A DNA stretch of 64,000 nucleotides. Source: an uncultured Actinomycetota bacterium (GTDB lineage: Bacteria > Actinomycetota > Actinomycetes > Mycobacteriales > Mycobacteriaceae). Below, in pieces: positions 14,776 through 45,076 of the stretch. A program made the translations under genes and the position numbers. The stretch lies in assembly GCA_963716465.1 (NCBI GenBank), contig CAVQTS010000010.1:2657-66656 (forward strand). Direction: 5' to 3'. The notes beneath the pieces were generated by a model. That model had not been told where the DNA came from, made no database searches, and saw nothing but the letters and a program-made list of their open reading frames with translations. Numbering within the stretch: position 1 is the first letter of the stretch; the number at the start of each line of letters is the position of its first letter.

Positions 14776-15931
14776 CCTCCTGTCCACCGGACTCCTTCCC
14801 GAGGAGTACGAGCAACTGGCCAAGACCGTGCGGGACTTCGCACGCTCGGTGGTCGCCCCCGTCTCGGCCAAGCACGACGCCGAACACTCCTTCCCCTACG
14901 AAATCGTCTCGGGCATGGCCGACATGGGCCTGTTCGGTCTGCCGTTCCCCGAGGAGTACGGGGGCATGGGCGGCGACTACTTCGCCTTGTGCCTGGCCCT
15001 GGAAGAACTCGGCAAGGTCGACCAGAGTGTGGCGATCACCCTGGAGGCCGGTGTCTCGCTCGGCGCGATGCCGGTCTACCGGTTCGGTAACGAGGTGCAG
15101 AAGCAGGAATGGCTGCCGCAGCTGACCAGCGGCGCGGCGCTCGGCGCGTTCGGCCTCACCGAGGCCGGCGGCGGCACCGACGCCGGCGCCACCAAGACCA
15201 CCGCGCGCATCGACGACGGCCATTGGGTGATCAACGGCTCCAAGCAGTTCATCACCAACTCGGGCACCGACATCACCAAGCTGGTCACCGTCACCGCTGT
15301 GACGGGAACCGTCGGCGACCGCCGGGAGATCTCCTCGATCCTGGTGCCGGTTCCCACCCCCGGCTTCACCGCCGAACCGGCCTACGACAAGGTCGGCTGG
15401 AACGCCTCGGACACCCACCCGCTGACTTTCGAGGATGTCCGCGTCCCCGAGGAGAACCTGCTCGGCGAACGGGGCCGCGGCTACGCCAACTTCCTGCGCA
15501 TCCTCGACGAAGGCCGCATCGCGATCGCCGCGCTGGCGACCGGTGTCGCTCAGGGCTGCGTCGACGAGAGCGTCAAGTACGCCAAGGAGCGAACCGCCTT
15601 CGGCCAGCCGATCGGGCGCTTCCAGGCCATCGAGTTCAAAATCGCCCGCATGGAGGCGCGGGCGCACGTGGCCCGCACCGCGTACTACGACGCGGCGGCT
15701 CTGATGCTGGCGGGCAAGCCGTTCAAGAAGGAAGCCGCGATCGCCAAGATGGTCGCCAGCGAGGCCGCGATGGACAACGCCCGCGACGCCACCCAGATCC
15801 ACGGCGGCTACGGGTTCATGAACGAGTACCCCGTCGCGCGCCACTACCGCGACAGCAAAATCCTCGAAATCGGCGAAGGGACAACAGAAGTGCAGCTGAT
15901 GCTCATCGCAAGGGAGTTGGGCGTCGCATGA
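14768..15931 (+). CDS. fadE19: acyl-CoA dehydrogenase
   Basis: [35 protein letters not shown]; synteny. Confidence 0.92.
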
Positions 15932-16416
15932 GTGAGCCGGTCGGGGAGAAGGTCGTCGAGCAGCGCGGCCTGTGGTTCGAGGAGTTCGAGCCGGGCGTGC
16001 GCTACCTGCACCGGCCCGGGCGCACCATCACCGAGGCCGACAACGTGCTGTTCACCACGTTGACGATGAATACCCAGGCGCTGCACCTGGATGCGGCGTT
16101 CTCCGACGCGCTGCCGCCGTTCCACCAGCGACTCGTCAACTCGATGTTCACCCTCTCCACCTTGGTGGGTCTGTCGGTCGCCCAGTTGACGCAGGGCACC
16201 ATCGTCGGCAACCTGGGCTTCTCCGAGATCGCCTTCCCCAAGCCGCTGTTCCACGGTGACACGCTCTACGCGGAGACCGTCATCACCGAGAAGCGCGAGT
16301 CCAAGAGCCGCCCGGGAGAGGGCATCGTGACGTTCGCCCACACCGGGCGCAACCAGCACGGCGACATCGTGGCGACGGCGAGCCGCAAGACCATGGTTCG
16401 GAAGAAGCCCGTCTGA
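15928..16416 (+). CDS. MaoC-family dehydratase (Rv2499c-like)
   Basis: GLWFEEF, RTITEADN, PLFHGDTL. Confidence 0.9.
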   Translation: MSEPVGEKVVEQRGLWFEEFEPGVRYLHRPGRTITEADNVLFTTLTMNTQALHLDAAFSDALPPFHQRLVNSMFTLSTLVGLSVAQLTQGTIVGNLGFSEIAFPKPLFHGDTLYAETVITEKRESKSRPGEGIVTFAHTGRNQHGDIVATASRKTMVRKKPV

Positions 16417-17234
16417 TGGCACTTGAGAATCCCGGGCCGGCCTGGCTGTTCTGCCCCGCCGACCGTCCGGAACGCTTCGAAAAAGCGTCGGCGACAGCCG
16501 ATGTCGTGATCCTCGACCTCGAGGACGGGGTGGCGGCCAAGGATCGTGCCGCCGCACGGGAGGCGCTGCTGGCCACTCCGCTCGATCCCGGTCGCACCGT
16601 GGTGCGGGTCAATCCGTCTGGCACCGAGGACCACCCCCGCGATCTCGAGGTGCTGGCTCGCACGCCGTACACGACGGTGATGCTGGCCAAGACCGAGTCC
16701 GCCGGACAGGTTGCCGCGCTGGCCCCGCTGGATGTGGTGGTCCTCGTCGAGACTCCGCTCGGTGCGCTGGCCGTGACCGAAACGGCGCGGGTGGCCAACG
16801 CGTACGCGGTGATGTGGGGAGCCGAGGACCTGTTCGCCGTGACCGGCGGCACCAACAACCGCTTCCCGGACGGCACCTACCGCGACGTCGCCCGCCACGT
16901 GCGGTCGCAGAGCCTGCTGGCTGCGAAGGCGTTCGGCAAGCTCGCGCTCGACTCGGTGTTCCTCGACATCAAGAACCTCGACGGCCTGCGCGCCGAGGTC
17001 GACGATGCCGTCGCCGTCGGCTTCGACGTCAAGGTGGCCATCCATCCCAGCCAGGTCGCCGTCATCCGCGACGGCTACGCGCCCACGGCCGATCAACTCG
17101 GGTGGGCACGACACGTACTGGCCGCCGCCCGCGATGAACGCGGTGTGTTCCAGTTCGAGGGCATAATGGTAGATGCCCCGGTGCTGCGGCGAGCAGAGCG
17201 CATCGTCCAGCTCGCGCCCGATCCCGGCCGTTAG
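16416..17234 (+). CDS. citE: CitE-family CoA ester lyase
   Basis: LFCPADRPERF, ILDLEDGVA, MWGAEDL, AIHPSQ. Confidence 0.9.
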   Translation: MALENPGPAWLFCPADRPERFEKASATADVVILDLEDGVAAKDRAAAREALLATPLDPGRTVVRVNPSGTEDHPRDLEVLARTPYTTVMLAKTESAGQVAALAPLDVVVLVETPLGALAVTETARVANAYAVMWGAEDLFAVTGGTNNRFPDGTYRDVARHVRSQSLLAAKAFGKLALDSVFLDIKNLDGLRAEVDDAVAVGFDVKVAIHPSQVAVIRDGYAPTADQLGWARHVLAAARDERGVFQFEGIMVDAPVLRRAERIVQLAPDPGR

Positions 17235-17338
17235 CTGGCACTCCGCCACAACGGATCTTGCTCTGACCGCCTCCGCACTGAGCAGACTTGAGGTCGTGAC
17301 GGCCAAACATGCCGTCGACGTGGCCATAAGGAGGCGGC

Positions 17339-18391
17339 ATGGGTCGATTGGTGCAACACATCGCACCGGACGGAACCGCGAATGCGGACTCCGACTATCG
17401 CCTGCCGCCGGAAACCTTGGCCTGGCTCTACGAAAACCTGATCGTCACCCGAGATCTCGACGGCGAGTTCGTCAACCTGCAACGCCAGGGTGAACTGGCC
17501 CTCTACGCGTCGTGCCGTGGTCAGGAAGCCGCCCAGGTGGGCGCGGTGGCCTGCCTGCGCAAGACCGACTGGCTCTTCCCGCAATACCGCGAACTCGGCG
17601 CCTTCCTGGTGCGTGGCATTGCACCCGCGCAGATGGCCGCGGTATGGCGCGGCGCGTGGCACGGCGGCCTGCAGTTCACCCGGAAGTGCTGCGCGCCGAT
17701 CGCGATTCCGATCGCCACCCATGCCCTGCACGCCGTGGGTGCCGCGATGGCGGCTCAGCGGCTCGGTGAGGATTCTGTGACGGTGGCCTTCCTCGGTGAT
17801 GGCGCGACGAGCGAGGGCGACGCCCACGAGGCGATGAACCTGGCCGCCGTCGACAAGGTGCCGTGCGTGTTCTTCGTGCAGAACAACCAGTGGGCGATCT
17901 CGGTGCCGGTGAGCCGCCAGCACGCCGGACCGTCGATCGCGCACCGCGCCTCCGGCTACGGAATGGCCGGAGTCATGGTGGACGGCAACGACGTTCTGGC
18001 CTGCTATGCGGTGATGAGCGAGGCGGCCGAACGGGCCCGCGCCGGTGAGGGGCCCACGCTGATCGAAGCGGTCACCTACCGGATGGGTCCGCACACCACG
18101 TCTGACGATCCCACCCGCTACCAGCCCGCAGAGGAACTCGACGAGTGGGCCGCGCGGGACCCGATCACCCGCTACCGCAGCTACTTACAGCGCATCGGGG
18201 TGCTCACCGACCGGCTCGAACAGCGGGTGAGCGCCCGCTCCGCACGGCTGCGCGCCGAACTTCGCGACGCCGTGGTCGACGCTCCGGATCCGGACGTGGG
18301 CGAGCTGTTCGACACCGTCTATGCCGAGATCACGCCGCTGCTCGCGGCCCAACGCGAGCAGTTGCTCGCCGAGATGGCGAAGGAGATCTGA
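17339..18391 (+). CDS. bkdA: branched-chain keto-acid dehydrogenase E1 alpha
   Basis: GQEAAQVG, GDGATSEGD...NN TPP-binding motif, YRMGPHTTSDDP. Confidence 0.92.
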   Translation: MGRLVQHIAPDGTANADSDYRLPPETLAWLYENLIVTRDLDGEFVNLQRQGELALYASCRGQEAAQVGAVACLRKTDWLFPQYRELGAFLVRGIAPAQMAAVWRGAWHGGLQFTRKCCAPIAIPIATHALHAVGAAMAAQRLGEDSVTVAFLGDGATSEGDAHEAMNLAAVDKVPCVFFVQNNQWAISVPVSRQHAGPSIAHRASGYGMAGVMVDGNDVLACYAVMSEAAERARAGEGPTLIEAVTYRMGPHTTSDDPTRYQPAEELDEWAARDPITRYRSYLQRIGVLTDRLEQRVSARSARLRAELRDAVVDAPDPDVGELFDTVYAEITPLLAAQREQLLAEMAKEI

Positions 18392-18392
18392 G

Positions 18393-19409
18393 ATGACCCA
18401 GATCATCGAACGGCCCCCGAAATTGACCGACCTGCCGGCGATCACAACTCTGACCATGGCACAGGCGATCAACCGCGCACTGCACGACGCGATGGCTGCC
18501 GACGAGCGCGTGCTGGTGTTCGGCGAGGATGTCGCGACATTGGGCGGGGTGTTCCGAGTGACCGAGGGACTGTCCGAAACATTCGGCGCTCCAAGGTGTT
18601 TCGACACTCCGTTGGCCGAGTCCGCGATCATCGGCATCGCCGTCGGCCTGGCTATCCGCGGGTTCGTGCCGGTACCCGAGATCCAGTTCGACGGCTTCTC
18701 GTATCCGGCGTTCGACCAGATGGTCAGCCACCTGGCCAAGTATCGGATGCGCACGCGAGGCGAAGTCGACATGCCGGTGACCGTGCGCATCCCGTCGTTC
18801 GGCGGCATCGGAGCGGTCGAGCACCATTCGGAATCGACCGAGACCTACTGGGCCCACACCGCCGGGCTCAAGGTCGTGGTGCCCTCGACTCCGTCGGACG
18901 CGTACTGGCTTCTGCGGCATGCGATCAGCTCCCGTGACCCGGTCGTCTACCTCGAGCCCAAGCGCCGCTACTGGACCCGCGACACCGTCGACTTCGCCGA
19001 TCCGGCACCGCCAATCGGCCGGGCCGCGGTTCGCCGGTCGGGCGGGGACCTCACGGTGATCACCTACGGCGGTCTGGTCGCCACCGCGCTGAACGCCGCC
19101 GAGATCGCGGAGTTCGACCTGGAGGTGATCGACCTTCGATCACTGAGCCCGCTGGACTTCGACACCGTCGCGGCCTCGGTCCGCAAGACCGGCCGGGCGG
19201 TGGTCATGCACGAGGGGCCGCGCACCCTGGGTTTCGGCGCCGAACTGGCGGCGCGGATCTCCGAGGAACTGTTCTACGACCTGGAGTCACCGGTGCTGCG
19301 CGCCACCGGATTCGACACACCGTATCCACCGGCGCGCATGGAGAAGGTCTGGTTGCCCGGGGTCGACCGGCTGCTGGACTGCGTCGAGAAAGCGATGCGA
19401 CGGCCATGA
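18393..19409 (+). CDS. bkdB: branched-chain keto-acid dehydrogenase E1 beta
   Basis: FGEDV, FDTPLAE, EIQFDGF, EHHSES. Confidence 0.92.
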
Positions 19410-20512
19410 GCGACTTCCTGGTTCCCGACCTCGGTGAGGGCCTGCTGGACGCCACGATCACCCGATGGGCCGTCTCGGTCGGCGACGTCGTCGAACTCAA
19501 CCAGACGCTGTGCACCGTGGAGACCAACAAGGCCGAGGTCGAGATCCCCAGCCCGTACGTCGGCCGGATCGTCGCCTTCGGCGGTGCGGAAGGCGAGACC
19601 CTGGCCGTCGGAACGTTGTTGGTGCGCATCGACACCGGTGGAGAGGAGAAACGCACGCCAGTTCTGGTCGGCTACGGAACCGACAACGGCATGGACCGCA
19701 GTCGACGGCCGCGTGCCGCACCGAAGGTCCGCAAGCTCGCCGCTGAGTTGGCCGTCGAGCTGTCCGGCCTGCAGCCCGGGTCGGGCGCCGACGGCATCAT
19801 CACCGACCAGGATGTGCTGGCGGCTGCGGGGTCTGATACTGAAACCATTGCAGTACAGGGTGTTCGGGCCCGGATGGCTACGCAGATGACGCTGTCGCGC
19901 AGCCGCATCCCCGACGCGCACGCCAGTGTTCAGGTGGATTGCTCTGCGCTACTGCGGTTGCGGGATCGGCTGGAGGTGACCCCCTTCGCCCTGACGTTGC
20001 GGATGCTCGTCATCGCACTGGGCCGTCATCCGGTAATCAACGCCACGTGGCTGGAAACCGAAGACGGCCCGCGGATTCAGCTGCATCGCGGCGTTCGGCT
20101 GGGCATTGCGGTGGCCACCGATCGGGGACTCGTGGTCCCGGTGATCCCCGACGCCGATACGCTGACCACGCGGCGGCTCGCGGCCGCAGTCGACGACACG
20201 GTCGAGCGGGCCAGGAGGGGCGCCCTTTCTCCAGCGGAACTCGGCGGGTCGACGTTCACGGTGTCCAACTTCGGTGCGCTCGGACTCGACGAAGGCGTTC
20301 CGGTGATCAACTACCCCGAAGCGGCGATCCTCGGAATGGGTTCGCTGAAGCCGAGGGCGGTGGTGGTCGACGACGCGGTGGTTGCCCGGCCGACGATGAC
20401 CTTGACATGCGCCTTCGATCACCGCGTCGCCGACGGCGCGCAGGCGGCGGCGTTCCTCGCCGACCTTCGTAGCCTGATCGAGGAGCCGGCGATCGCGCTG
20501 CTGGAACTCTAG
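19406..20512 (+). CDS. bkdC: dihydrolipoamide acyltransferase E2
   Basis: ETNKAEVEI lipoyl motif, DHRVADG catalytic motif. Confidence 0.92.
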
Positions 20513-24429: not shown

Positions 24430-25089
24430 ATGGCCACGATCGATGCAGAACCCTTCCCCCTGGACTTCGATGTCGACAGCACCGCGCTGCTCATCATCGA
24501 CATGCAGCGCGATTTCGTGCTGCCCGGCGGCTTCGGTGAAGCCCTGGGCAACGACACCTCGCTGCTGCTCGCCGCCGTCGAGCCCATCCAGCGGGTGCTC
24601 GAACGTGCTCGCGACATCGGCATGTTCGTGATCCACACCCGCGAAGGCCACCGGCCGGACCTCACCGACTGTCCAGCGGCGAAACTCACCCGCGGCGGTA
24701 AGACCTTCATCGGCGAGGACGGCCCGATGGGCCGCATCCTGGTCCGCGGCGAGCAGGGCCACGACATCATCCACCAGCTGTATCCCATCGAGGGCGAACC
24801 GGTGATCGACAAGCCGGGCAAGGGCTCGTTCCACGCCACCGACCTGCAACAGATCCTCTTCGATCGCGGCATCAAGACGCTCGTGGTGTGCGGCGTGACG
24901 CTCGAGGTCTGCGTCCACACCACCGTGCGCGAGGCCAACGACCGAGGCTACGAGTGCGTGGTCCTGTCCGACTGTGTGGCCTCCTACTTCCCGGAGTTCC
25001 AGCGAGTCGGCCTGGAGATGATCAAGGCCCAGGGCGCGATCTTCGGCTGGGTGTCGGATTCCGAGCGCTTCCTGGCCGCCACGTCCTAG
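24430..25089 (+). CDS. isochorismatase-like cysteine hydrolase of the TrtA/BiuH group, TrtA (triuret hydrolase)-type signature
   Basis: D-K-C triad ([20 protein letters not shown]) plus [24 protein letters not shown]. From memory these match TrtA rather than BiuH (GGYVDHMGYD, DVCV, GATDYGNH, QGGVFG). Confidence 0.8.
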
Positions 25090-25153: not shown

Positions 25154-26716
25154 ATGAGCACCAACTCGCGTTTCTACCCCAACCTCTACAAGGACTCCGT
25201 GTCCTTGATGACGGTCTCGGCACAGGTGACGTCCATACCGGGCATCGAAGCAGCGTCGGTGGTGATGGCCTCGGCCACCAACGTCGACAACCTCGCCCAA
25301 GCCGGACTGGGCACCTTCGACGTCCGGCCCAACGACCTGGTGGTCGCCGTCTCCGGCACCGACGAGGCCTGCGAGGAAGCTCTGGCGCTGGCCGACCAAC
25401 TGCTCTCCGCGGCACCCGGTGGCGGGGGCGAGGAGACCAGCGCGGCCGCGCCGACCACCAGCATCCAGATGGCCGTCACCAAGGACCCCGCTCTGAACCT
25501 CGCCTTGGTGTCGGTGCCCGGCGACTACGCCGCGGCCGAGGCCATGAAGGCGCTGCGGCTGGGCCTGGACGTGATGATCTTCAGCGACAACGTGACTCCC
25601 GACGCGGAACTGGCGCTCAAGGAGTACGCCCGCGAGGTCGACCTGATGGTCATGGGGCCCGACTGCGGGACCTCAATCGTCAACGGCATCCCGCTCGGCT
25701 TCGCCAACGTGGTGCGCCGCGGACCGATCGGGGTGGTCGGAGCGTCCGGAACCGGCACCCAGGAGGTCACCGTCCGGGTCCACCAGAACGGATCGGGGAT
25801 CTCCCAGGCTCTCGGCACCGGCGGACACGACCTGGCCGACGCCATCGGCGGCATCTCGATGCTGCACGGCCTGGCCGCCCTCGACGGCGACCCGGGCACC
25901 TCGGTGATCGTGCTGGTGTCCAAACCCCCGTCACCGGACGTCGCCGCCAAGGTGCTCTCGGCCGCCGAGGCCAGCGACAAGCCGGTCGTCGTCATCTTCC
26001 TCGGCGCCGATCCCGCCTCGATCACCCGCAACGGCGTCTACGGTGCGGCCTACCTGGCGCAGGCCGCGGACATGGCGGTGGAGTTGGCCCGCGGCGAAGA
26101 GCCGCACTCCGGTGAGATCACCGTCTCGAACGAAATGCGGCGCACGCTCAAGGATCTCGCCCGGTCGATGGCCCCGAGTCAACGTCATGTGCGCGGCATC
26201 TTCTCCGGCGGCACGTTCTGTTACGAGGCCCAGCTGGTGCATCGCGCCCGAGGCATCTCCGCCTACTCCAACACCCCGGTGAAAGGCAACAGCGCGCTGG
26301 ACGACATCCGCAAGAGCCTGGAGAACACCATCGTCGACATGGGTGACGATGAATTCACCCAGGGCAGACCGCATCCCATGATCGACCCGTCCCAGAAGGA
26401 CGCCCGCATCCGCGACGAAATCGCCGACCCCACAACGGCTGTCGTGCTGTTCGACGTGGTGCTGGGTTACGGATCCGCCGATGACCCGACGGCGGAACTG
26501 ATCTCGATCATCGGGTCGTCGAAGGCCAAGGCCCGCGCCGCGGGCAGAAACGTGGCGTTCATCGGTTACGTCTGCGGCACCGATCTGGACCCGCAGGACC
26601 GCGCGAAAGCCGTGGCCGGCCTCAAGTCGGCCGGTGTGCTGGTCGCCTCGAGCAACGCCGAGGCTGCCGTCTGGTCGGCGGCGCTGATCGCCGAGCGAGA
26701 AGGAGTCGGCAAGTGA
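25154..26716 (+). CDS. fdrA: FdrA/AllF/YahF-like acyl-CoA-synthetase-fold protein
   Basis: YKDSVSLM, ALVSVPGDYAAAEA, MGPDCGT, IGVVGASGTG, DMGDDEFTQGRPHPMIDP. Confidence 0.9.
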   Translation: MSTNSRFYPNLYKDSVSLMTVSAQVTSIPGIEAASVVMASATNVDNLAQAGLGTFDVRPNDLVVAVSGTDEACEEALALADQLLSAAPGGGGEETSAAAPTTSIQMAVTKDPALNLALVSVPGDYAAAEAMKALRLGLDVMIFSDNVTPDAELALKEYAREVDLMVMGPDCGTSIVNGIPLGFANVVRRGPIGVVGASGTGTQEVTVRVHQNGSGISQALGTGGHDLADAIGGISMLHGLAALDGDPGTSVIVLVSKPPSPDVAAKVLSAAEASDKPVVVIFLGADPASITRNGVYGAAYLAQAADMAVELARGEEPHSGEITVSNEMRRTLKDLARSMAPSQRHVRGIFSGGTFCYEAQLVHRARGISAYSNTPVKGNSALDDIRKSLENTIVDMGDDEFTQGRPHPMIDPSQKDARIRDEIADPTTAVVLFDVVLGYGSADDPTAELISIIGSSKAKARAAGRNVAFIGYVCGTDLDPQDRAKAVAGLKSAGVLVASSNAEAAVWSAALIAEREGVGK

Positions 26717-28131
26717 AGAAGCTCTTCGAAGAAGACCTCAAGGTCGTCAACATCGGCCTGCAGGGATTCGCCAACAACATCACCGCGGCAGGTGGTCAGG
26801 TCACCAACATCACCTGGGCCCCGCCCGCGGGCGCCGACGCGGCGCTGGGCTGGACGCTGGCCAACCTGGTGGGCGACCCCCGCATCGCGGAGGCCAACCG
26901 GGTTGCCTACGACCGCTACCTCGGCGCGCAGCCACGACTGGTCGACCTCGTCCGCGCCACCGAGGCGATCCCCGGACTTGGACCGGGGGAGCGCCGCATC
27001 CTGCATTCGGGGCCGCCGATCGCCTGGCCCGACATGTGCGGCCCGCAACGCGGGGCGATCGCGGGCGCCATCCTCTACGAGGGCTGGGCCGACGATCTCG
27101 AAGCCGCTGAGAAGCTCGCCGAAAGCGGTGCGGTGGCGCTGGATCCGTGCCACGAGCACGGCGCCGTCGGACCGATGGCCGGCATCATCAGCCCGTCGAT
27201 GCCGGTGTGGGTGGTGGAGAACACCGCGGCGGGAAACCGTGCCTACTGCAACCTCAACGAAGGTCTGGGCAAGGTGCTGCGGTTCGGCGCCAACTCCCCG
27301 GAGGTGCTGGACCGGCTGCGCTGGCTGGGTAGCGACTTCTTCGAGACCATGCAGGTCGCGGTGCGCGGGCTGGCCGACCCCGACCTCAAACCACTGATGG
27401 CGCAAGCGCTGCACATGGGCGACGAGCTGCACAACCGCAACGCCGCAGCCTCGGCGCTGCTGTTCAAGCGGCTGACCTTGTCGCTCCTGGCCTCGGACCT
27501 GCCCGCCGACGCGGTGCGCCGGGCGCTGGAGTTCGTCGCCGGCAACGACCACTTCTTCCTCAACGTGTCGATGGCGGCGTGTAAGTCGATGACCGACGCC
27601 GCCGCCGGCGTGGCGGGCAGCAGCATGGTGACGGTGATGGCCCGCAACGGGGTGAACTTCGGCATCAAGCTCAGCGGAACGGGTGACCAGTGGTTCCAGG
27701 CACCTGCCAATCCCGTTGACGGCCTGTACTTCCCGGGTTACACGGTCGAGGACGCGGCGGCCGACCTGGGAGACTCGGCGATCACCGAGACCAACGGCCT
27801 GGGCGGGTTCGCGATGGCCGCGTCACCGGCGATCGTGCAGTTCGTCGGTGGCACACCCGCCGACGCGACGGCCAACAGCCGCCGGATGCTGAGCATCACC
27901 CTCGGCGCCAACCCGGCATTCACGTTGCCGCCGTTGAACTTCGGCGGAACCCCGGCGGGCATCGACGCCCGGCTGGTGGTGGACTCCGGGGTGTTGCCGA
28001 TCATCAACACCGGTATCGCTCACCGGCTGGCCGGCGTCGGGCAGATCGGCGCCGGCATCACCACCGCCCCGATGGAGTGTTTCAACGAAGCGCTCGCGGC
28101 GCTGGCCGCCGACCTGGGAGCGGGCAAGTGA
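26713..28131 (+). CDS. DUF1116 (YlbE/AllG/YahG-like) protein
   Basis: LHSGPPI.W..MCGPQRGA, MGDELHNRN, GNDHFFLN, DLGDSAITE, INTGIAH. Confidence 0.9.
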   Translation: MKKLFEEDLKVVNIGLQGFANNITAAGGQVTNITWAPPAGADAALGWTLANLVGDPRIAEANRVAYDRYLGAQPRLVDLVRATEAIPGLGPGERRILHSGPPIAWPDMCGPQRGAIAGAILYEGWADDLEAAEKLAESGAVALDPCHEHGAVGPMAGIISPSMPVWVVENTAAGNRAYCNLNEGLGKVLRFGANSPEVLDRLRWLGSDFFETMQVAVRGLADPDLKPLMAQALHMGDELHNRNAAASALLFKRLTLSLLASDLPADAVRRALEFVAGNDHFFLNVSMAACKSMTDAAAGVAGSSMVTVMARNGVNFGIKLSGTGDQWFQAPANPVDGLYFPGYTVEDAAADLGDSAITETNGLGGFAMAASPAIVQFVGGTPADATANSRRMLSITLGANPAFTLPPLNFGGTPAGIDARLVVDSGVLPIINTGIAHRLAGVGQIGAGITTAPMECFNEALAALAADLGAGK

Positions 28132-29501
28132 GCACCGCGATCGTGGCCTTCGGCGGCAACGCACTGGTCACCGACGCCGAGCACGATTCGATCCCGCAGC
28201 AGTACGAGACCGTCAGCCGCACGGTGCCGCCGCTGATCGACATGGTCGAGCAGGGTTGGAAACTCGTTGTCTCCCACGGCAATGGACCCCAGGTGGGATT
28301 CATTCTGCGCCGCTCCGAGCTCGCCGAGGACGAGGTGGATCCCGTCCCGGTCGACTACGCCGTCGCCGACACCCAGGGCGCGATCGGCTACATGTTCGTC
28401 AAGGCGTTGCGCAACGAGCTCGCCCGGCGCGGGTTGTCCCGGCCCGTCGTGGCGGTGGTCACCCACTCTGTGGTGAGCCTCGACGATCCCGCGTTCCAGA
28501 ACCCGACCAAACCGGTCGGGTCCTTCCTCGAGGAGGCCAAGGCCAAGGAGATGGCGGCCACGCTCGGCTGGACCATCGCCGAGGACGCCGGGCGTGGATG
28601 GCGCCGTACGGTCGCTTCGCCACAACCCACCGAGATTCTTGAGACCGACCTGATCCGAAGTCTGCTCGACGACGGGGCGATCGTGGTGGCGGTCGGCGGT
28701 GGCGGCATCCCGGTCGCGGTGGAATCCGACGGGACCGTGGTCGGCGTGGAAGCCGTGGTGGACAAGGACCTTGCCTCCGGTCTGCTGGCCCACGACCTGG
28801 GCGCCGACCTGCTGATGATCCCCACCGGCGTGCCGCGGGTCGCCATCGGCTTCGGCACCCCCGAGGAGAAGTGGCTGGACTCGATCACCGTCGAGGAGGC
28901 CCGCGACTACATCGCCTCCGGCCAGTTCGGCAAAGGCTCGATGGAACCCAAGGTCGAGGCCGTCGCCGACTTCGTCGCCACGACGCCGGGTGCCACCGGC
29001 GTCATCGGTGCCGCCGAGGAGATCCCGGCGATCCTGGCCGGAACATCCGGAACCCGGATCGTCGGCGACAGCGCAGCCGCCAAACCGGCTGCGCAGCACA
29101 CCGATAGCGGGGCAGTGCTGTTGGCGGTCAACGGCACCTTGATGCGCGGGCTGAAACTCTCGCCGAACATGGCGGCCGCAGGCGCCTCGTTCGTCCGGGA
29201 GATTACCACCGAACCGGTCTACCGGATCTGGACCGTCAACGACGACCACCCCGCGATGATTCGGGTAACCGACGGCTCGGGAGTGGCTGTCGCCGTTGAG
29301 GTCTGGTCGGTCCCGGCCGCGGGTCTGGCCGGAATCCTGCTCAACGAGCCCCCGGGGCTGTCGATCGGCAAGGTCAACCTCGCCGACGGATCGACGGTGC
29401 TCGGCGTGATCGCAGAGCCGGCCCTCGTCGAAGGCCAACGCGAAATCAGTCACCACGGCGGTTGGCGGGCTTACACCGCCGCGGAGGGAGTTTCGTCATG
29501 A
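28128..29501 (+). CDS. carbamate kinase fused to an allophanate-hydrolase C-terminal-like domain
   Basis: N-part AFGGNAL, SHGNGPQVG, ADTQGAIGY, GGGGIPV, VVDKDLAS, GSMEPKV. C-part of about 130 aa: LAVNGTLMRG...YRIW...VEVW..P...IGKVNLADG...ISHHGGWRAY. Confidence 0.88.
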   Translation: MSTAIVAFGGNALVTDAEHDSIPQQYETVSRTVPPLIDMVEQGWKLVVSHGNGPQVGFILRRSELAEDEVDPVPVDYAVADTQGAIGYMFVKALRNELARRGLSRPVVAVVTHSVVSLDDPAFQNPTKPVGSFLEEAKAKEMAATLGWTIAEDAGRGWRRTVASPQPTEILETDLIRSLLDDGAIVVAVGGGGIPVAVESDGTVVGVEAVVDKDLASGLLAHDLGADLLMIPTGVPRVAIGFGTPEEKWLDSITVEEARDYIASGQFGKGSMEPKVEAVADFVATTPGATGVIGAAEEIPAILAGTSGTRIVGDSAAAKPAAQHTDSGAVLLAVNGTLMRGLKLSPNMAAAGASFVREITTEPVYRIWTVNDDHPAMIRVTDGSGVAVAVEVWSVPAAGLAGILLNEPPGLSIGKVNLADGSTVLGVIAEPALVEGQREISHHGGWRAYTAAEGVSS

Positions 29502-30445
29502 CCATCATGGGCAAGAACGTGTTGCCCGAAGCGCAACTCGGCAGCCTTCCGTTCTGGCGGCAGTACCTGAGGGGCTTCTCGCAGTGCGCGTTTCAGGCCA
29601 ACGAGATCACCGGCCTGCTCTTCGTCATCGGGGTGCTGACCTATGACTGGCGCATGGCGGTGTTCTACGTCATCTCGGTGCTCATCGCGACCGTTGTGGC
29701 GCGGCTGCTCAAGGCCGACCGCACGCTACTGGATCTCGGGCTGTTCGGTTTCAACTCCGGCCTGATGGGCCTGGCTATGGGCAACTTCTACCAACCTGGC
29801 ATAGCGCTGTGGGTGTGGGTGATAGTGCTGGCCGCCGTGGTCGCCGTGGTCGCGGTCGCGATGTCCAAGTTGCTGCCGTTCCCGTTCCTGGCGGCGCCTT
29901 TCATCGTGACCTTCTGGCTCATCTGGTTCATCGCCGACGCCCGCCCGGAACTGGTCAAGCTCGACTTCGGACCGTGGCCGGTGGAGAACGTGCGGTGGGG
30001 CACCGCGCTGATCGACGCCTTGGGTGCAACATTGTTCGCACCGGCAATCCTGACCGGGGTGTTCTTCTTACTCGGTGTACTGGTCAGCAACTGGCGCCAC
30101 GCGGTGATCGCCGTGGTGGCCGCCTTCATCGCCGTCGCGATCGCCGCCCATGTCGGCACCGCGGGAGGGGCCATCAACACCGGGTTCGTCGGCTTCAACG
30201 CCGTGCTGGCCGCGCTGGGCGCCGCCGCTGTGCTGGATGGTGACCTGCGTCTGGCCATCCTGGCCGCACTACTGGGCACCTGGTTCTTCAGCTACATCAA
30301 TCGCAACGCACCGGTTCCGGCACTGGCGTCGGGATTCGTTCTCGCCGTCTGGGCGGTGATGGTGCTCGACTGGCTGCACCGGCGATTCGGCCCTGGGGCG
30401 CATCAGGATTCAGCGCCACCGGCAACCGAGTCGGTCAGCGCTTGA
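29498..30445 (+). CDS. urea transporter (UT-family channel)
   Basis: LRGFSQCAFQAN..TG, GLFGFNSGL and GFVGFNAVL internal repeat halves, PFLAAPF; about 10 TM. Confidence 0.85.
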   Translation: MTIMGKNVLPEAQLGSLPFWRQYLRGFSQCAFQANEITGLLFVIGVLTYDWRMAVFYVISVLIATVVARLLKADRTLLDLGLFGFNSGLMGLAMGNFYQPGIALWVWVIVLAAVVAVVAVAMSKLLPFPFLAAPFIVTFWLIWFIADARPELVKLDFGPWPVENVRWGTALIDALGATLFAPAILTGVFFLLGVLVSNWRHAVIAVVAAFIAVAIAAHVGTAGGAINTGFVGFNAVLAALGAAAVLDGDLRLAILAALLGTWFFSYINRNAPVPALASGFVLAVWAVMVLDWLHRRFGPGAHQDSAPPATESVSA

Positions 30446-38112: not shown

Positions 38113-39393
38113 CTAGTTGGATTCCATTCGGTACTTGGGGGCACGGCCTTCCATCTCCTCGCAGCAAACAAGGAATCCTGTGTCGAAGAGGAGATCGAAG
38201 ACGGGTGCGAAGTCCTGCCGGATGGTCGAGTCGCACGCCTGAAGCAGGTCCTTCCTGCTCGCTGCCCCGACCCGCTGGAGCTTTCGGCTGATGGCCTTGG
38301 CGACCCGCTGCTGACGTTCCTCAGTCAGACGTTCGGCGATGATCGCTTCCCTGTCGGCTTGGTTGTGAGCCTTCGCCACGTTTGCATTGCGGCGGCGGTC
38401 ATCTAAGACGAATCGGACGTCGTCACGGGCACGCTTGGACACCGCCAGCAGTTCCCCTCCGATCTTCCAATCGAACTCGTCGATGTCCCGTCGCCCCTCC
38501 AGCAGCGCCAGCCCGAATGCGACCTTCAACCTGGTGAGCATCAGGTGACCGTCAAGCGGGTCGATGTCGGTGGAACCGGTCAGGACGAGGTGGCGGTGGG
38601 CGAGGATCTCGTCGGTGACCGACTCGGGCACCGAGACCAGGTACTCCTCGTCGCAGCCGAAGTCAGGGACGATCACGTCGACCGGAGTCACTGGCTCGGG
38701 TCGGTCGGCCGGGGCGTACGGGTCGATCGTTGGCACCCACAGGAATCGTTGCGGGAACCCGTCCTTCTCCCGGTCGAGGAAGAAATCGCAGTTCTCCGGT
38801 TGGGAACTGATCCCCAAGCAGAGGCGATACGAGTGGGCCGGGACCGCGGTGGTGGTCTCCTTCTGCGCGTTGTGAAAGCCCAACGGTTGTCCCATGTAGG
38901 CCTTCAAAAGCTCCCCGGCCAGCGTGGCACCCTGGCGGCCCGCCAGCGCGGCCAGTGTTGAGACCTCGGGCACGGTCAGGTGCGCCCGCATCATGCCCGG
39001 CTGGTTCTTGGAGCCCTTGAAAAGTCGGGCCAATCCTTCCCCGGTGCCGATACTCGGGCGTTCGGCGTCAAGGGGTATCCCGCCCTCGCCGGGGAAGGAC
39101 ACAGCCGAGAAGCCGGCCGCGTCAGCGGCGTCCTTACCCTGTCCAGATCGGCCCACGGCGACAGTGTTCAGGTTGACCGAAACCGCGCCACCAACGATCG
39201 GCGGCAGCTTCACCTTCGGGTCAACACAGGAGATCGCCCGCCGCAGAACACAACCCAGTACCGGGTAGGGTGCGACCGATCGGGATCGGGCGAATCGGTG
39301 GATGTGGATGAGGATGTCCCGTTGGGTCCAGAACCCGATATCGGGGTCGGACTCCTCGGCACTCATCGGTTCGACGGTGCTGGCATCGATCAC
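38113..39393 (-). CDS. replication protein, putative helicase (DUF3987-like P-loop)
   Basis: VAVGRSGQGK Walker-A-like motif, EVSTL, YRLCLGISSQP, GFPQRFLW; overlaps the primase-polymerase gene. Confidence 0.7.
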   Translation of the reverse strand: MIDASTVEPMSAEESDPDIGFWTQRDILIHIHRFARSRSVAPYPVLGCVLRRAISCVDPKVKLPPIVGGAVSVNLNTVAVGRSGQGKDAADAAGFSAVSFPGEGGIPLDAERPSIGTGEGLARLFKGSKNQPGMMRAHLTVPEVSTLAALAGRQGATLAGELLKAYMGQPLGFHNAQKETTTAVPAHSYRLCLGISSQPENCDFFLDREKDGFPQRFLWVPTIDPYAPADRPEPVTPVDVIVPDFGCDEEYLVSVPESVTDEILAHRHLVLTGSTDIDPLDGHLMLTRLKVAFGLALLEGRRDIDEFDWKIGGELLAVSKRARDDVRFVLDDRRRNANVAKAHNQADREAIIAERLTEERQQRVAKAISRKLQRVGAASRKDLLQACDSTIRQDFAPVFDLLFDTGFLVCCEEMEGRAPKYRMESN

Positions 39394-40463
39394 GGAATCT
39401 CCTGCAGTCGTAATGCTCTGGCGGCAGCAGACATATCTCCCCCATGGTTCAGGACTGCGTACGCGCGGAATTTCGTGTAGCCCTTAGGGTTATCGGGCTC
39501 GGTGGCCTCGAAGTCGGTCGATGTTGAGTAGACGAACAGGCAGCCGTTCCGGACCGTGGCCGAACAGCTCGACGTCGCGGCCGGGTGCAGCCACACCGCA
39601 CCATCCGACTCTGGGTCGTTCGTGACGCAGCGCCAGCCGCGCGGCTGCAGGATCGACGCCCAGGTGCTGGTGGCGCAGAAGTCTTCGGCGATCGACCGGC
39701 CCCAAGTGTGGACGCTGACCAGTCGGCGCGTCGACCTTGGGGCGGCTTTGACCGTTTCGAGGCACAACAGATTCACCAGCCATGCGGGAGGCGTGGCGAC
39801 CGGCCCCTCAACCCGCGTGTAGCGGTTACCGGTATCGGGGTGGATCGACGGCGGACCCACGACATAGCCGGTCGAGGTCTTGATCTCGATGCCCTTGGGC
39901 AGCTTCATGACCGACAGCTCCCCGTGCGGCCGCCGGAAGTACAGATGCCGTCCACCGGTGGCGCGGCCGGTGACCGTGGTCAACGTCTCGGGCAAGGTGC
40001 CGTACCGGTTCTCCATCGCCCTTAGGGCGTCAAGGTTGTCGACGTCAAGGACGAACATTGACTCAGGCACCCTGATCCCGATATTGCAGCCGGCCCACTG
40101 TCTGCCCCACCACGAGGCGACCGTGCGGATGTCGGTCGTGGCGTCGTAGAGGCCGTGGCCGAACTGCCCGCACTCGCCGCGGCAGTTCTTCCTCTCCTTG
40201 CTGCCCTCCGGGTGGGGGCTGGCGATCACGGGGCACTTTCCCCGCAGAGGGAAGACCGGCCACTTGTTCGCCGCGTACTCGACCGCGTAGGTGCCGATGC
40301 CGCTGGCGGCCGACTGGGCGCGGAGAAGTTCCTCACCTTCCCGCTGCTGTGCCACGATGGCTTTAGACCTGCTCTCCCGGATGGATGGTTGGTTGAACGG
40401 CTCCCGGCTCGGTGGTGGTGCATCGAGGACATCGGGGGCCGTTTTCTCATGCCGCATCACCAC
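39390..40463 (-). CDS. bifunctional DNA primase/polymerase (Prim-Pol)
   Basis: WPVFPL, ATTD...WW...NIGI, VLDVD, TGRATGGRHLYF, GYVVGPPSIHPDTG.Y. Confidence 0.9.
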   Translation of the reverse strand: MVMRHEKTAPDVLDAPPPSREPFNQPSIRESRSKAIVAQQREGEELLRAQSAASGIGTYAVEYAANKWPVFPLRGKCPVIASPHPEGSKERKNCRGECGQFGHGLYDATTDIRTVASWWGRQWAGCNIGIRVPESMFVLDVDNLDALRAMENRYGTLPETLTTVTGRATGGRHLYFRRPHGELSVMKLPKGIEIKTSTGYVVGPPSIHPDTGNRYTRVEGPVATPPAWLVNLLCLETVKAAPRSTRRLVSVHTWGRSIAEDFCATSTWASILQPRGWRCVTNDPESDGAVWLHPAATSSCSATVRNGCLFVYSTSTDFEATEPDNPKGYTKFRAYAVLNHGGDMSAAARALRLQEIP

Positions 40464-40716
40464 CGGTGAACTGGGCGTTCTCCCACGCGATCACGTCGGA
40501 CAGCCGGTAGCGGACGTGCCGGCCGAAGCGGGCATAACGCGGCCCCACGCCGTGGTGTGCCCACTGGTCAAGGGTCGACTTCCTCACCTTCAGCCGTTCA
40601 GCGACCTCAAGGCGCGTTAGCCACTCGTCAACCAGGGGAGCGAAATGTGGGTCAGAGCCACACTTAAGACCGTTAATTGATTCCATGTCGGCAACCGTAG
40701 GGTCCACTCGCGACAC
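40447..40716 (-). CDS. excisionase / AlpA-like HTH DNA-binding protein
   Basis: WLTRLEVAERLKVRKSTLDQWAHHGVGPRYARFGRHVRYRLSDVIAW. Confidence 0.9.
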   Translation of the reverse strand: MSRVDPTVADMESINGLKCGSDPHFAPLVDEWLTRLEVAERLKVRKSTLDQWAHHGVGPRYARFGRHVRYRLSDVIAWENAQFTGGDAA

Positions 40717-40759
40717 TTCTCAAGAGGGATGCGTTAGTTCGAAGAGAATGCATTAGATT

Positions 40760-41338
40760 TTGCGTGTGTCACACACATCGATGTCTTGGGACGAGCAGGT
40801 CGTCAAGCGGATCGCCTCTCAAATACGCGCGCTGCGAACAGCAGAGGGCATCTCGGCGCAAGGACTGGCCGACAGGATCACCGAACTGGGGCACGCGATG
40901 TCCCGATCGACACTGGCCGACATTGAGAACGGCCGGCGGAAGTACATCACCGTCACCGAGCTGATGATGCTCGCTAGGGCTTTGAACACCGCCCCGATTC
41001 TGCTGATCTACCCCGGCCCCTACGGAGACGCCACCGAGGTTCTCCCCAACATCAACTTCACTCAGATGCAGGCGCTCAAGTGGTTCACGGGAGACTTGAC
41101 GGGTTCCGCCGATGCCGCTATTTACGGCGAGGCTAGGTCCGACGACCGCGACATCTACCAGTCCACTGTCCGCCGGCAGCGCTTGGAGATGGCGCTCTGG
41201 GACCTCGAAGAAAAGCAGGCCGCCATGGAGGAGCTGATCCGCCGTCTTCGACCGGGTGACGAGTCGACGATCAAAGCCATCGAAGAATCCGTCGAGATGG
41301 CCCGGACGATCGAGAGTTACAAGCTGTATGGCGGGTAG
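40760..41338 (+). CDS. XRE-family repressor; start may be 40781
   Basis: IRALRTAEGISAQGLADR...MSRSTLADIENGRR. Confidence 0.85.
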   Translation: MRVSHTSMSWDEQVVKRIASQIRALRTAEGISAQGLADRITELGHAMSRSTLADIENGRRKYITVTELMMLARALNTAPILLIYPGPYGDATEVLPNINFTQMQALKWFTGDLTGSADAAIYGEARSDDRDIYQSTVRRQRLEMALWDLEEKQAAMEELIRRLRPGDESTIKAIEESVEMARTIESYKLYGG

Positions 41339-42494
41339 ACCACCACTGAGGATCGGGCACCACGGGAAGATCACCCGGATCCAGGTGGCCGATGGAATGT
41401 GGTTGGCGCGGTGCCGATTCCGCGACTCTGACGGAATCACCCGTATCGTGGAGCGTCGAGGCCCGCCGGGGGACCAGCACGGCAAGCTCGCCGAGGATGT
41501 TCTGGTCGCCGCACTGGCTGACCGTCGGCCCCCAGGGGTCGACCAGATCAGACTGGACACCCCGGTGATGACGTTGGTCGGCATGCACATCGAACGTCTT
41601 GCCCAGGACGGCAGGTCAATCCGCACTCTCGACACCTACCGTTACGACTCCGAGAAGCTCAAGAAATTTCTCGCCGGGGTGCGGGTGGGGGAGTCCACCA
41701 CGGCCCGCATCGATGCCGCCCTGCGATCCATGCGCGCCAGCCATGGCTCGACCATGGCCCGAAGATCCCGCACAGTCCTACGCGGAGCCCTCCAGCTGGC
41801 GGTCCTTAACAACGTTCTCGGTTCCAATCCCGTCCGCGATGTCCAGATGATCCGGTCGAAGGCAAGGCCCAAGGGTGCGGCCGCGCTGACCGCCGACGAA
41901 TTAGGAGCGCTCCTCGACAAACTCCGCGCCTCCGAGGTGTGCCGCAAGCATGACCTTGTCGACCCGATCACCATCCTGATGGCAACCGGCCTGCGCAGGT
42001 CGGAGCTGCTGGCCCTGCGCTGGACTGACTTCAGTCCGACGGCTCGCACACTGACGGTGCGCGCCAAGGTGGTGCGGCAGAAGGGTGAAGGGTTGAAGCT
42101 GGTCGAGGAACCCAAGACCGCAGCCGGATGCCGAACAATCCCGTTGCCGCCCTTCGCAATCCGCACATTAACCGAACGCCGCAAGCTGCCCTACCTCGGC
42201 GAGCAGAAGGTTATCTTTCCGTCGACCGCCGGAACCCTGCGGGACCCGGACAACTTCGGCTCCCAATGGCGGGAAGCCCGCGACGAGTTGGGTGTGCCCG
42301 ACGTCTCATCACATTCGTTCCGCAAAAGCCTCGCTACGTTGATCGATTCGGCCGGCCTGTCAGCCCGGATCGGGGCCGATCACCTGGGCCACGCCAAGGT
42401 GTCGATGACGCAGGACCGCTACATGGCCAGGGGCCGCGTGCATTCCGAAGTGGCCGAGGTGGTGGAGCGGTCGATCATCAAAAACGATGAATAA
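41328..42494 (+). CDS. tyrosine integrase
   Basis: ATGLRRSELLAL (R), KTAAG (K), HSFRKSLAT (HxxR), LGHAKVSMTQDRY (H, Y); ends 46 bp before the att repeat. Confidence 0.95.
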   Translation: MAGRPPLRIGHHGKITRIQVADGMWLARCRFRDSDGITRIVERRGPPGDQHGKLAEDVLVAALADRRPPGVDQIRLDTPVMTLVGMHIERLAQDGRSIRTLDTYRYDSEKLKKFLAGVRVGESTTARIDAALRSMRASHGSTMARRSRTVLRGALQLAVLNNVLGSNPVRDVQMIRSKARPKGAAALTADELGALLDKLRASEVCRKHDLVDPITILMATGLRRSELLALRWTDFSPTARTLTVRAKVVRQKGEGLKLVEEPKTAAGCRTIPLPPFAIRTLTERRKLPYLGEQKVIFPSTAGTLRDPDNFGSQWREARDELGVPDVSSHSFRKSLATLIDSAGLSARIGADHLGHAKVSMTQDRYMARGRVHSEVAEVVERSIIKNDE

Positions 42495-42540
42495 ACGATG
42501 GATCGGTACTAGAGAAACATAACATAAATAGGCCCTGAGC

Positions 42541-42579
42541 TGCGCCCCCGGCAGGAATCGAACCTGCGACCTAGGGATT
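42541..42579 (-). repeat. att core, right copy of the 39-bp tRNA 3' half
   Basis: Identical to 36433-36471; flanked by non-tRNA sequence. Confidence 0.92.
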
Positions 42580-42757
42580 TGTGATTTCGGGTGCCGACGA
42601 GTTCCGGAAAAGTGCTTGTTTGTGCTGGTAGAGGGCAGTTTTGGTTTCCGGGTGATGGGGTCTCGAACCGGCTGAATCCGGTCGATTCTTGGTCATTAGC
42701 ACCGAATAAACGGCAACGCGGTTCGAGGCAAATGCGGGCTGGAATATCGGCAGCTGT

Positions 42758-43036
42758 TCATTGCGTCCGGTAGGCGTCTGCGCGGCTGAATACACCCACG
42801 ACCGTGACGCGTCGGTGCTCGTCGTCTATGCGGTAGATCACGCGGTACGTTCCCCGTCGGGCACTGTGGCGATCCTCCAGTGGCGGCCGCAATCGTTTGC
42901 CGACCCGATGTGGGTTGTCCAGCAGTGGTCCCGTGATGAACTCATACGCGGCGAACGCCACTGCCTCCGGTAGGACTTCGGCCAGCTGTCGCCTCACGAT
43001 CGGGGCGATGACCAATTTGTATCGCTGGTCGGTCAC
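42758..43036 (-). CDS. relE: RelE-family toxin
   Basis: GPLLDNPHRVGKRL...HSARRGTYRVIYRIDD, close to mycobacterial RelE/RelG. Confidence 0.9.
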   Translation of the reverse strand: MTDQRYKLVIAPIVRRQLAEVLPEAVAFAAYEFITGPLLDNPHRVGKRLRPPLEDRHSARRGTYRVIYRIDDEHRRVTVVGVFSRADAYRTQ

Positions 43037-43323
43037 TTTCCGGCTCGACGAGCTTGCATCGCCGCGGCGAGATCGTCCTCGTTCTCGCCTTCGCCTCTGG
43101 CCAATTCAGCGTCAGCCTCGCTCAGTGCGCGCAGCGCAGCAGAGTCGGACAGGATCGCAATGGTCTCCTCGAGTGACTCCAGATCGTCGACAGCGATAAG
43201 GACCGCGGTGGGGCGCCCATGGACCGTGACGGTGATCCGTTCGTGTTGCTCTCCGACCCTAGCGACCAACTCAGAGAGGTGGGCTTTTGTTTCAGCGAGT
43301 GAGCTGATTTCAGTCATGGTCAT
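43033..43323 (-). CDS. relB: Phd/YefM-family antitoxin (RelB/RelF-like)
   Basis: SLAETKAHLSELV...ITVTVHGRPTAVLI..DDLESLEET; an ATGGTCAT-N4-ATGACCAT palindrome (43316-43335) overlaps the start. Confidence 0.9.
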   Translation of the reverse strand: MTMTEISSLAETKAHLSELVARVGEQHERITVTVHGRPTAVLIAVDDLESLEETIAILSDSAALRALSEADAELARGEGENEDDLAAAMQARRAGK

Positions 43324-43473
43324 AAGTATGACCATAAATTAGGTCCTTGTCCAAGCTCTTCAGGACGGGGTTGATCGGTCTCATTTCGCGAAAAAGTGTG
43401 CAGTCCGCGTGGTCGGAACCTGGGTCAAAGCGTCGAAACCCTCTCGCCGGTGCTGGGGTTATGCCGCGTCAAC

Positions 43474-43500: not shown

Positions 43501-43532
43501 TTTAATCCAATAACTGAAGTTAAACTCGACGC

Positions 43533-45055: not shown

Positions 45056-45076
45056 CTTGTGGAGGTGGTTGGGTCG

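Follow-up and report, generated by a model that had tools for sequence, protein, structure and literature searches.

A close described counterpart of the locus treated here is the oxamic transcarbamylase of Escherichia coli, AllFGH, which interconverts oxamate plus carbamoyl phosphate and oxalurate plus inorganic phosphate (Pi), after which AllK (YbcF) makes adenosine triphosphate (ATP). The E. coli enzyme is reported to need AllH, and its kinetics have been described for the substrates carbamoyl phosphate and oxamate, the latter showing a Michaelis constant (KM) of 36.9 mM. A second group of described systems degrades triuret, biuret and cyanuric acid, compounds that occur as fertiliser impurities, as breakdown products of herbicides and disinfectants, and as products of uric acid oxidation. 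The known routes are purely hydrolytic and consist of either TrtA, TrtB, BiuH and AtzF, as in Herbaspirillum sp. BH-1, or AtzD, AtzE, AtzG, AtzH and AtzF. The window analysed here, a stretch of 64,000 nucleotides from an uncultured member of the Mycobacteriaceae, contains a five-gene operon whose fourth gene (28128-29501, + strand) encodes a carbamate kinase fused to an AH_C domain, the family that closes allophanate hydrolase. Read from its sequence, the locus appears to be an AllFGHK-type module joined to an AH_C domain. Our preferred reading, to which we give somewhat less than an even chance, is that the operon, in which a kinase and an AH_C domain resembling the E. coli protein c4763 are fused, would carry triuret, by way of carboxybiuret and carbamoyl phosphate, to urea with a gain of ATP.

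The reading frame of the fusion runs from a GTG at 28128 to a stop codon at 29499-29501 and encodes 457 amino acids comprising an intact carbamate kinase, a 16-residue linker and the AH_C domain, in that order. The GTG shares bases with the TGA of the upstream AllG-like gene (GTGA), and the TGA shares bases with the ATG of a downstream gene for a urea-transporter-family (UT) channel (ATGA at 29498); overlaps at both ends place the fusion within a tightly coupled operon. Pfam assigns residues 3-283 to AA_kinase (PF00696) and residues 331-450 to AH_C (PF21986; E 2.5e-37). The AH_C match spans positions 2-122 of the 123 in the profile and scores 128 bits, the cut-off being 27. NCBIfam models place a full carbamate kinase across residues 3-312, with PRK12352 scoring 339.5 against a cut-off of 266 and the carbamate kinase equivalog TIGR00746 scoring 350.3, slightly below its cut-off of 358.25. 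The motifs GGNA, HGNGPQVG, TKPxG, GGGGIPV, DKD and PK all align with 1E19 (E 1.7e-79) and 1B7B and are invariant in an alignment of 34 fused homologues. By these models and motifs, the N-terminal half is a carbamate kinase (EC 2.7.2.2, arcC).

In a structure model of the full-length protein, the predicted local distance difference test (pLDDT) score is mostly above 80 in the kinase domain (residues 1-312, 28128-29063) and falls below 50 at residues 317-327 of the Ala/Pro-rich linker GDSAAAKPAAQHTDSG (residues 313-328, 29064-29111). The C-terminal domain (residues 329-457 plus the stop codon, 29112-29501), which ends in ...HHGGWRAYTAAEGVSS, has scores of 35-76 in that model. Those values make the model unsuited to questions of domain packing, and the domain was remodelled alone. 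The first-pass annotation had described one open reading frame with a complete carbamate kinase, a linker and a C-terminal domain ending GGWRAY, and this description holds. It had also remarked on the missing amidase domain, and no Amidase match was found in the Pfam and NCBIfam scan of the fusion protein. Against the allophanate hydrolase models the protein scores 100-103 bits, where the cut-offs are 487-511, and against Pfam GGACT it scores 18.4 bits, under the cut-off of 22.8.

The fusion is not an assembly artefact, since the combination of PF00696 and PF21986 is present in all 120 of the best database matches (443-615 amino acids), the linker varies in both length (5-29 residues) and sequence among 108 fused homologues, and one soil-metagenome contig crosses the junction without indels, contig cover of the locus being thin. 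The sources of these 120 matches, isolates as well as metagenomes, are independent and belong to Mycobacterium, Mycolicibacterium, Acidimicrobiales and Acetobacteraceae. The in-frame fusions group together in a neighbour-joining kinase tree, in a single clade that spans Actinomycetota, Alphaproteobacteria and Betaproteobacteria, which suggests a single fusion event followed by horizontal spread. Operons with the fused gene are also found in genomes of Mycobacterium, Mycolicibacterium, Alphaproteobacteria, Hyphomicrobiales and Burkholderiaceae. In one Acetobacteraceae metagenome-assembled genome (MAG) the operon has AllH between the hydrolase and AllF, and an AllH-containing order with the fused gene recurs in a metagenome contig with cluster relatives labelled Acidimicrobiales. 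Three loci that looked like fusions in tblastn (L020, L023 and L025) have their kinase and AH_C matches in different frames and were counted as split-adjacent. The first-pass annotation did not recognise the fusion from characterised proteins, and no characterised example was found in the literature searched; the arrangement is nevertheless not rare, and it joins adjacent genes of a conserved operon. In public databases the fused protein is annotated only as 'carbamate kinase', and the split gene either misleadingly as 'glutamyl-tRNA amidotransferase' or as 'allophanate hydrolase-related protein'.

The consensus operon consists of a TrtA-type cysteine hydrolase, in some versions AllH, then AllF, AllG, carbamate kinase, AH_C and a transporter. 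In E. coli CFT073, Caballeronia, Photobacterium, Psychrobacter and Dyella, the kinase and a 126-132-residue AH_C protein are encoded by separate genes of this operon. The CFT073 version (L005 28189-35402) reads cysteine hydrolase, DUF2877, fdrA, DUF1116, arcC, 'allophanate hydrolase-related protein' and cytosine permease, followed by a LysR regulator gene; c4763 lies directly after arcC, and the identical seven-gene operon surrounds four further standalone AH_C relatives in the other four genera. Judged by this gene order, the fusion is two neighbouring genes of a conserved operon joined in frame, a Rosetta-stone arrangement. Among 5,426 complete E. coli genomes, 1,560 (about 29%), including Nissle 1917 and uropathogenic strains, carry the split operon, mostly at 99% identity or above, and 127 of its places are on plasmids. 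Its presence in only part of the species, together with the plasmid copies, marks it as an accessory, mobile trait.

Co-occurrence was counted in 79 loci, which were retrieved from species-representative genomes by searching with the fusion and annotated with reference proteins from the window and CFT073. Among the informative loci with AllF/AllG and kinase, sixteen have both hydrolase and AH_C, two have the hydrolase only, none has AH_C only and five have neither. AH_C is absent from all of the roughly 50 lone kinases in the census. A Fisher test of the association between hydrolase and AH_C gives p = 6e-4, a descriptive value because the loci are not phylogenetically independent. These counts indicate that AH_C tracks the hydrolase-containing AllFG-kinase module and not carbamate kinase as such. 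One gammaproteobacterial MAG (L017 10001-11912) has a kinase of the fused clade, no AH_C and a UT gene directly downstream of the kinase; it may be a natural domain-deletion variant, or its AH_C may lie past the contig end.

The first gene of the window operon (24430-25089, + strand, 219 amino acids) encodes an isochorismatase-like cysteine hydrolase (Pfam Isochorismatase, E 5e-43). Its best solved relative is TrtA, 6XIX (E 2.7e-79, 59% identical); biuret hydrolases (BiuH) follow at about 1e-67, and the score of 269 against the BiuH equivalog is below the cut-off of 370. The residues that distinguish TrtA from BiuH have been listed (PMC7948467), and all 25 operon hydrolases, that of the window and 24 others, carry the TrtA-type F35, N41, E160, Y187 and I205. 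The catalytic D24 and K129 are likewise present in all 25, and C162 in all but one. The window protein has the complete D24/K129/C162 triad and five of the six TrtA-specific residues, with Ser in place of Ala at position 134, a substitution (A134S) that is not deleterious in TrtA (PMC7948467). By these residues the first enzyme is of the TrtA (triuret hydrolase) type, and TrtA is inactive on biuret (PMC7948467).

Both TrtA acting on triuret and cyanuric acid hydrolase yield carboxybiuret, which decarboxylates spontaneously. This common product is of interest because of a locus in Huaxiibacter chinensis (L021 2511-10275), where genes for a cyanuric acid hydrolase (NCBIfam equivalog 579 against a cut-off of 360; 6BUM, E 3.6e-174) and an NCS2 permease precede AllH, AllF, AllG and kinase genes, with a LysR gene at the end. 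No TrtA-like hydrolase and no AH_C were found in this locus, and its AllG is the sister of the CFT073 operon copy in the AllG tree, within the hydrolase-linked clade. That two non-homologous makers of carboxybiuret stand before one and the same module argues more strongly than any other observation for the entry of carboxybiuret, or of its immediate product, into AllF/AllG. The gene content of the Huaxiibacter locus suggests a carbamoyl-phosphate route for cyanuric acid.

Turning to that module, the window encodes an AllF/FdrA-like carbamoyltransferase subunit (25154-26716, + strand, 520 amino acids; Pfam CoA_binding and Ligase_CoA; NCBIfam FdrA, 462.6 bits against a cut-off of 433) and an AllG (DUF1116)-like subunit (26713-28131, + strand, 472 amino acids; Pfam AllG, E 4e-92), the stop codon of which overlaps the start of the fusion. 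The locus resembles E. coli AllFGH/AllK in holding homologous AllF, AllG and kinase genes in one operon, and the proposed logic, in which an N-carbamoyl compound is phosphorolysed and ATP is then formed, would be shared. It differs in having no AllH, no adjoining allantoin genes, a TrtA-type hydrolase in first place and the extra domain fused to the kinase. Identities of the window AllF, AllG and kinase to the characterised E. coli AllFGHK proteins are 41, 47 and 42%, compared with 52, 65 and 61% to the hydrolase-linked copies of CFT073. In the AllG tree the hydrolase-linked proteins, including that of the window, form a separate clade, and CFT073 holds the hydrolase-linked and the AllFGHK systems at separate loci. 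Given the identities of 41-47%, the clade of their own and the coexistence in CFT073, the two systems are paralogues, for which different substrates are expected. Searches with the AllH profile at E values up to 10 gave no match in the window or in the mycobacterial loci with 10-kb flanks; the operons without AllH (DUF2877) are the mycobacterial version and one Hyphomicrobiales version (L006-L012, L016, L018 and L022). No allantoin genes were found in the window. With AllH absent, proteins that are not orthologous and no linkage to allantoin genes, the window operon lacks defining features of the E. coli AllFGHK system.

The closest solved relative of the window AH_C domain is c4763 of E. coli CFT073 (5C5Z, 129 amino acids; E 4.5e-44, 60% identity), and identities to 38 standalone c4763-type members are 54-63%. 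The two share the operon position directly after carbamate kinase and the subfamily motifs; c4763 differs in being a separate protein, and its operon contains AllH, the place of the UT-family channel being taken by an NCS1 permease. The PDB entry 5C5Z contains two chains, and c4763 is reported to be a homodimer. Modelled alone, the window domain reaches a pLDDT of 85, and Foldseek gives template modelling (TM) scores of 0.83/0.91 to 5C5Z, 0.80 to the C domain of the Kluyveromyces lactis enzyme (4ISS/5I8I) and 0.5-0.6 to GGACT/GGCT, in agreement with the AH_C/GGCT-like fold that the first-pass annotation had expected. A search of 1.8 billion representative proteins returned 1,608 AH_C relatives, the nearest of which are standalone proteins of about 130 residues.

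An alignment of 75 near-complete AH_C domains separates two types, the c4763 type comprising standalone, kinase-fused and hydrolase-fused domains. In the N-terminal strand the c4763 type has LAVNGTLMRGL where the allophanate hydrolase type has LAVVGAHLxGxPL; the corresponding pairs are HPAM and KPGL in the middle, EPPGLxIGK and VPxPLxIG in the Glu region, and GGWRxY and GGWRAY at the C-terminal end. The window domain carries NGTLMRG, HPAM, EPPGL and GGWRAY and, by these motifs, is a member of the mostly standalone c4763-like subfamily and not of the allophanate hydrolase type. The original description of the domain as the C-terminus of allophanate hydrolase is thus right as to family and fold but not as to subfamily. 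Both types share T361, Y365, R366, E391, W393, P408, G414, E430 and the GGWR.Y end, and invariant in both c4763-type alignments are N335, R340, R366, D372, H374, E391, E407, K415, E430 and R447. Relative to the C domain of allophanate hydrolase and urea amidolyase (K. lactis 4ISS and 5I8I; Granulibacter 4GYR), the window domain belongs to the same Pfam family and fold, with 28-30% identity to the K. lactis enzyme in the Foldseek alignment; the window protein has no amidase and has VNGTL for VGAHL and EPPGL for VPxPL. N-carboxycarbamate has reportedly been proposed as the substrate of the allophanate hydrolase C domain, where it would come from the enzyme's own fused amidase. Since the subfamily is different, that mechanism is not simply transferable to the window domain. 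GGACT (3JUC) and GGCT (2RBH) share with the window domain the general fold, the G-T-L-x-x-G signature of the GGCT fold, which the c4763 type as a whole retains, and, in a weak alignment, a Glu at the catalytic-Glu position; identity is 11-20%, and the window has no gamma-glutamyl context. E407 and the conserved Glu region of PH0828 (1V30) can likewise be aligned, again weakly (E 0.43). No demonstrated activity of a c4763-like AH_C was found in the literature searched.

AH_C domains also occur in other architectures, namely hydrolase-AH_C, AH_C-hydrolase, AH_C-hydrolase-hydrolase, AH_C-DUF3810, GGT-AH_C and the classical amidase-AH_C. The fused hydrolase domains are of the BiuH type by their motifs, and BiuH makes allophanate. 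AH_C-BiuH proteins come from the streptophyte algae Klebsormidium, Chlorokybus and Spirogloea. Taken together, the algal BiuH fusions and the window operon show AH_C recurring beside makers or consumers of allophanate-like N-carboxy ureides. The algal fusions were considered as a key to the order of reactions and set aside, being eukaryotic, free of operon context and compatible with both orders discussed below. Streptophyte algae also have AH_C-BiuH-TrtA-like proteins, some green algae have double hydrolases without AH_C, and in P0189 the second hydrolase domain apparently has changed catalytic residues (algal proteins P0136, P0189 and P0390-P0409). For allophanate hydrolase itself, the N and C domains are reported to catalyse sequential reactions (PMC5770610). 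AtzF lacking its C-terminal 14 kDa is fully active, and its oligomeric state shifts from a larger form to a dimer. The AtzF C domain is said to contribute no relevant catalysis.

In the preferred pathway, the TrtA-type hydrolase would convert triuret to carboxybiuret and NH3, AllF/AllG would combine carboxybiuret with Pi to give carbamoyl phosphate and allophanate, the kinase domain would use carbamoyl phosphate and adenosine diphosphate to form ATP and carbamate, and the AH_C domain would decarboxylate allophanate to urea and CO2. In this way a single protein would clear both products of a phosphorolysis that is itself unfavourable. In structure, carboxybiuret (H2N-CO-NH-CO-NH-COO-) has one NH more than oxalurate (H2N-CO-NH-CO-COO-). 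This order of steps is preferred because the characterised AllFGH homologue binds a carboxylate substrate, because allophanate equals in size the N-carboxycarbamate proposed as substrate of the allophanate hydrolase C domain, because each fused domain would remove one product of a single reaction, and because AH_C-BiuH proteins that lack a TrtA domain are as expected if AH_C acts once allophanate has been formed. On a wider view, which we hold more doubtfully still, the operon would be an unrecognised, ATP-yielding branch of triuret and cyanuric acid degradation with a bifunctional kinase::AH_C, and the same pathway would operate unfused in about 29% of complete E. coli genomes.

Several points weigh against this interpretation. 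All of the substrates, the order of decarboxylation and phosphorolysis, and catalysis by AH_C are predictions from sequence comparison and gene order. The mycobacterial operons lack AllH, while the E. coli transcarbamylase needs it. Two relatives have no AH_C in the DNA at hand, namely L017, whose kinase falls inside the clade of fusions, and the Huaxiibacter locus L021 with its cyanuric acid hydrolase, so that the domain may be dispensable or encoded elsewhere. The GAHL His of the allophanate hydrolase type (chain residue H515 of 4ISS) is Leu338 in the window; this His would be the His492 reported as catalytic in the K. lactis C domain. The truncation of AtzF suggests a structural role for the domain in at least one allophanate hydrolase. 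The UT gene was downgraded as a clue to a urea product, because the transporter slot is variable among relatives (UT, NCS1 permease, an unknown membrane protein or none) and the window protein scores 119 bits against the Yut urea-transporter equivalog, far under the cut-off of 275; a UT homologue is thus weak evidence for urea.

The rival that lies nearest to the preferred pathway has the same net stoichiometry and differs in step order alone: AH_C would decarboxylate carboxybiuret to biuret, as TrtB does, and AllF/AllG would then convert biuret to carbamoyl phosphate and urea. An operon that starts with a carboxybiuret-producing enzyme suits this order, as would a urea product beside a UT gene, and comammox contigs with trtA and biuH beside allFGHK are without trtB (PMC12625717). 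A Chlorokybus protein with AH_C, BiuH and TrtA-like domains would likewise unite three consecutive steps if AH_C acted between TrtA and BiuH, whereas the two-domain algal AH_C-BiuH proteins that lack TrtA fit AH_C acting after BiuH. Since carboxybiuret decarboxylates unaided, biuret is neutral where the characterised homologue uses the carboxylate oxalurate, and the operon combines a TrtA-type enzyme inactive on biuret with the absence of BiuH, we consider this order unlikely. The first-pass annotation had offered conversion of carboxybiuret to biuret as an example of what the domain might do; the TrtA-type hydrolase and the cyanuric acid hydrolase uphold the carboxybiuret-type context, and the direction to biuret becomes one of at least two equally economical orders. 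Its comparison with TrtB goes no further than function. TrtB falls in one tree with AtzH and HpxZ (PMC12625717), AtzH is an NTF2-superfamily protein, and the NTF2-like TrtB is unrelated to the GGCT-like AH_C, so that their likeness is one of functional analogy only. The Herbaspirillum sp. BH-1 pathway has the same type of first enzyme, with carboxybiuret as the expected intermediate; the window operon has no BiuH, AtzF or TrtB and contains the module of AllF/AllG, kinase and AH_C instead.

The remaining rivals change the role of AH_C or of the whole cluster. AH_C may be non-catalytic and serve to oligomerise the protein, dock the kinase on AllF/AllG, or bind and shield an unstable N-carboxy intermediate. 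The altered oligomeric state of active, truncated AtzF, the reported lack of relevant catalysis by the AtzF C domain, Leu338 at the GAHL His position, the two relatives without AH_C and the two chains of 5C5Z would all be in keeping with such a role. Many polar residues are nonetheless invariant across phyla, the GGCT-fold signature is kept together with the weakly aligned catalytic-position Glu, AH_C is a separate gene in most lineages, and its different fusion partners (the kinase here, BiuH in algae) are easier to reconcile with a catalytic unit that moves between proteins than with a dock specific to one partner; we judge this possibility, too, to be on the unlikely side. A third proposal, that AH_C pulls the kinase reaction forward by hastening the decay of carbamate to NH3 and CO2, draws on the direct fusion to the kinase and on carbamate being the product reportedly proposed for the allophanate hydrolase C domain. 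Carbamate breaks down fast unaided, however, the algal AH_C is fused to BiuH and not to a kinase, and AH_C occurs in none of the roughly 50 lone kinases and none of the five AllFG-linked kinases without hydrolase, the domain tracking the hydrolase; the proposal seems to us improbable. Least probable of all, and only barely credible, is that the cluster performs ordinary oxalurate (allantoin) catabolism and the extra domain is incidental. AllF, AllG and carbamate kinase are present, and allFGHK beside biuH in nitrifier genomes has been read as oxalurate catabolism (PMC12625717). The window nevertheless has neither allantoin genes nor AllH, its proteins are 41-47% identical to those of E. coli with AllG in a separate clade, CFT073 has both systems, and the linkage to TrtA-type hydrolases and AH_C is tight.

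No carbamoyl-phosphate route from carboxybiuret and no characterisation of the operon were found in the literature searched, where only the nitrifier paper notes allFGHK beside triuret and biuret genes, in metagenomes, with oxalurate catabolism as its reading (PMC12625717). If the preferred pathway is correct, bacteria of several phyla would regain one ATP per molecule via carbamoyl phosphate, and the newly defined AllFGH transcarbamylase family would gain a second substrate. The AH_C/c4763 domain, whose catalytic role is disputed even in allophanate hydrolase, would acquire a testable function. A function would also fall to the 'uropathogen-specific' c4763, and the pathway would account for the cluster seen in some 1,560 complete E. 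coli genomes, those of uropathogens and Nissle 1917 among them.

The last gene of the window operon (29498-30445, + strand) encodes the divergent UT channel (Pfam UT, E 7e-46), which may carry something other than urea or import the pathway substrate, as its score against the Yut model would allow. In several lineages the transporter slot is filled by a conserved protein of about 520-600 amino acids without a Pfam match (L013 2665-3762, L023 2369-4168, L025 6263-6964, L029 4537-6201, L030 4639-6198, L039 10764-12542, L063 11626-13257 and L075 16028-17773). Its hydrophobic N-terminal region (WWEPGDWNGFFGL...) suggests a membrane protein, probably an undescribed permease. Promoter, terminator and Rfam scans across the operon returned no matches. 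In the operon of one Actinomycetota MAG (L022 7025-12319), AllF, the kinase and UT are each split over several frames, probably through assembly error and not decay. Elsewhere in the window, positions 12286-20512, upstream of the operon and apparently unrelated to it, hold a branched-chain/leucine catabolism block with methylcrotonyl-CoA carboxylase alpha, acyl-CoA dehydrogenase, and 2-oxoacid dehydrogenase E1 alpha, E1 beta and E2. Positions 38113-48951 hold a likely integrative mobilisable element with Prim-Pol, a tyrosine integrase and a TrwC relaxase-helicase. Within it, the open reading frame at 48055-48951 resembles an insertion boundary, with a creatininase fragment running into a truncated MmyB-like ligand-binding domain.

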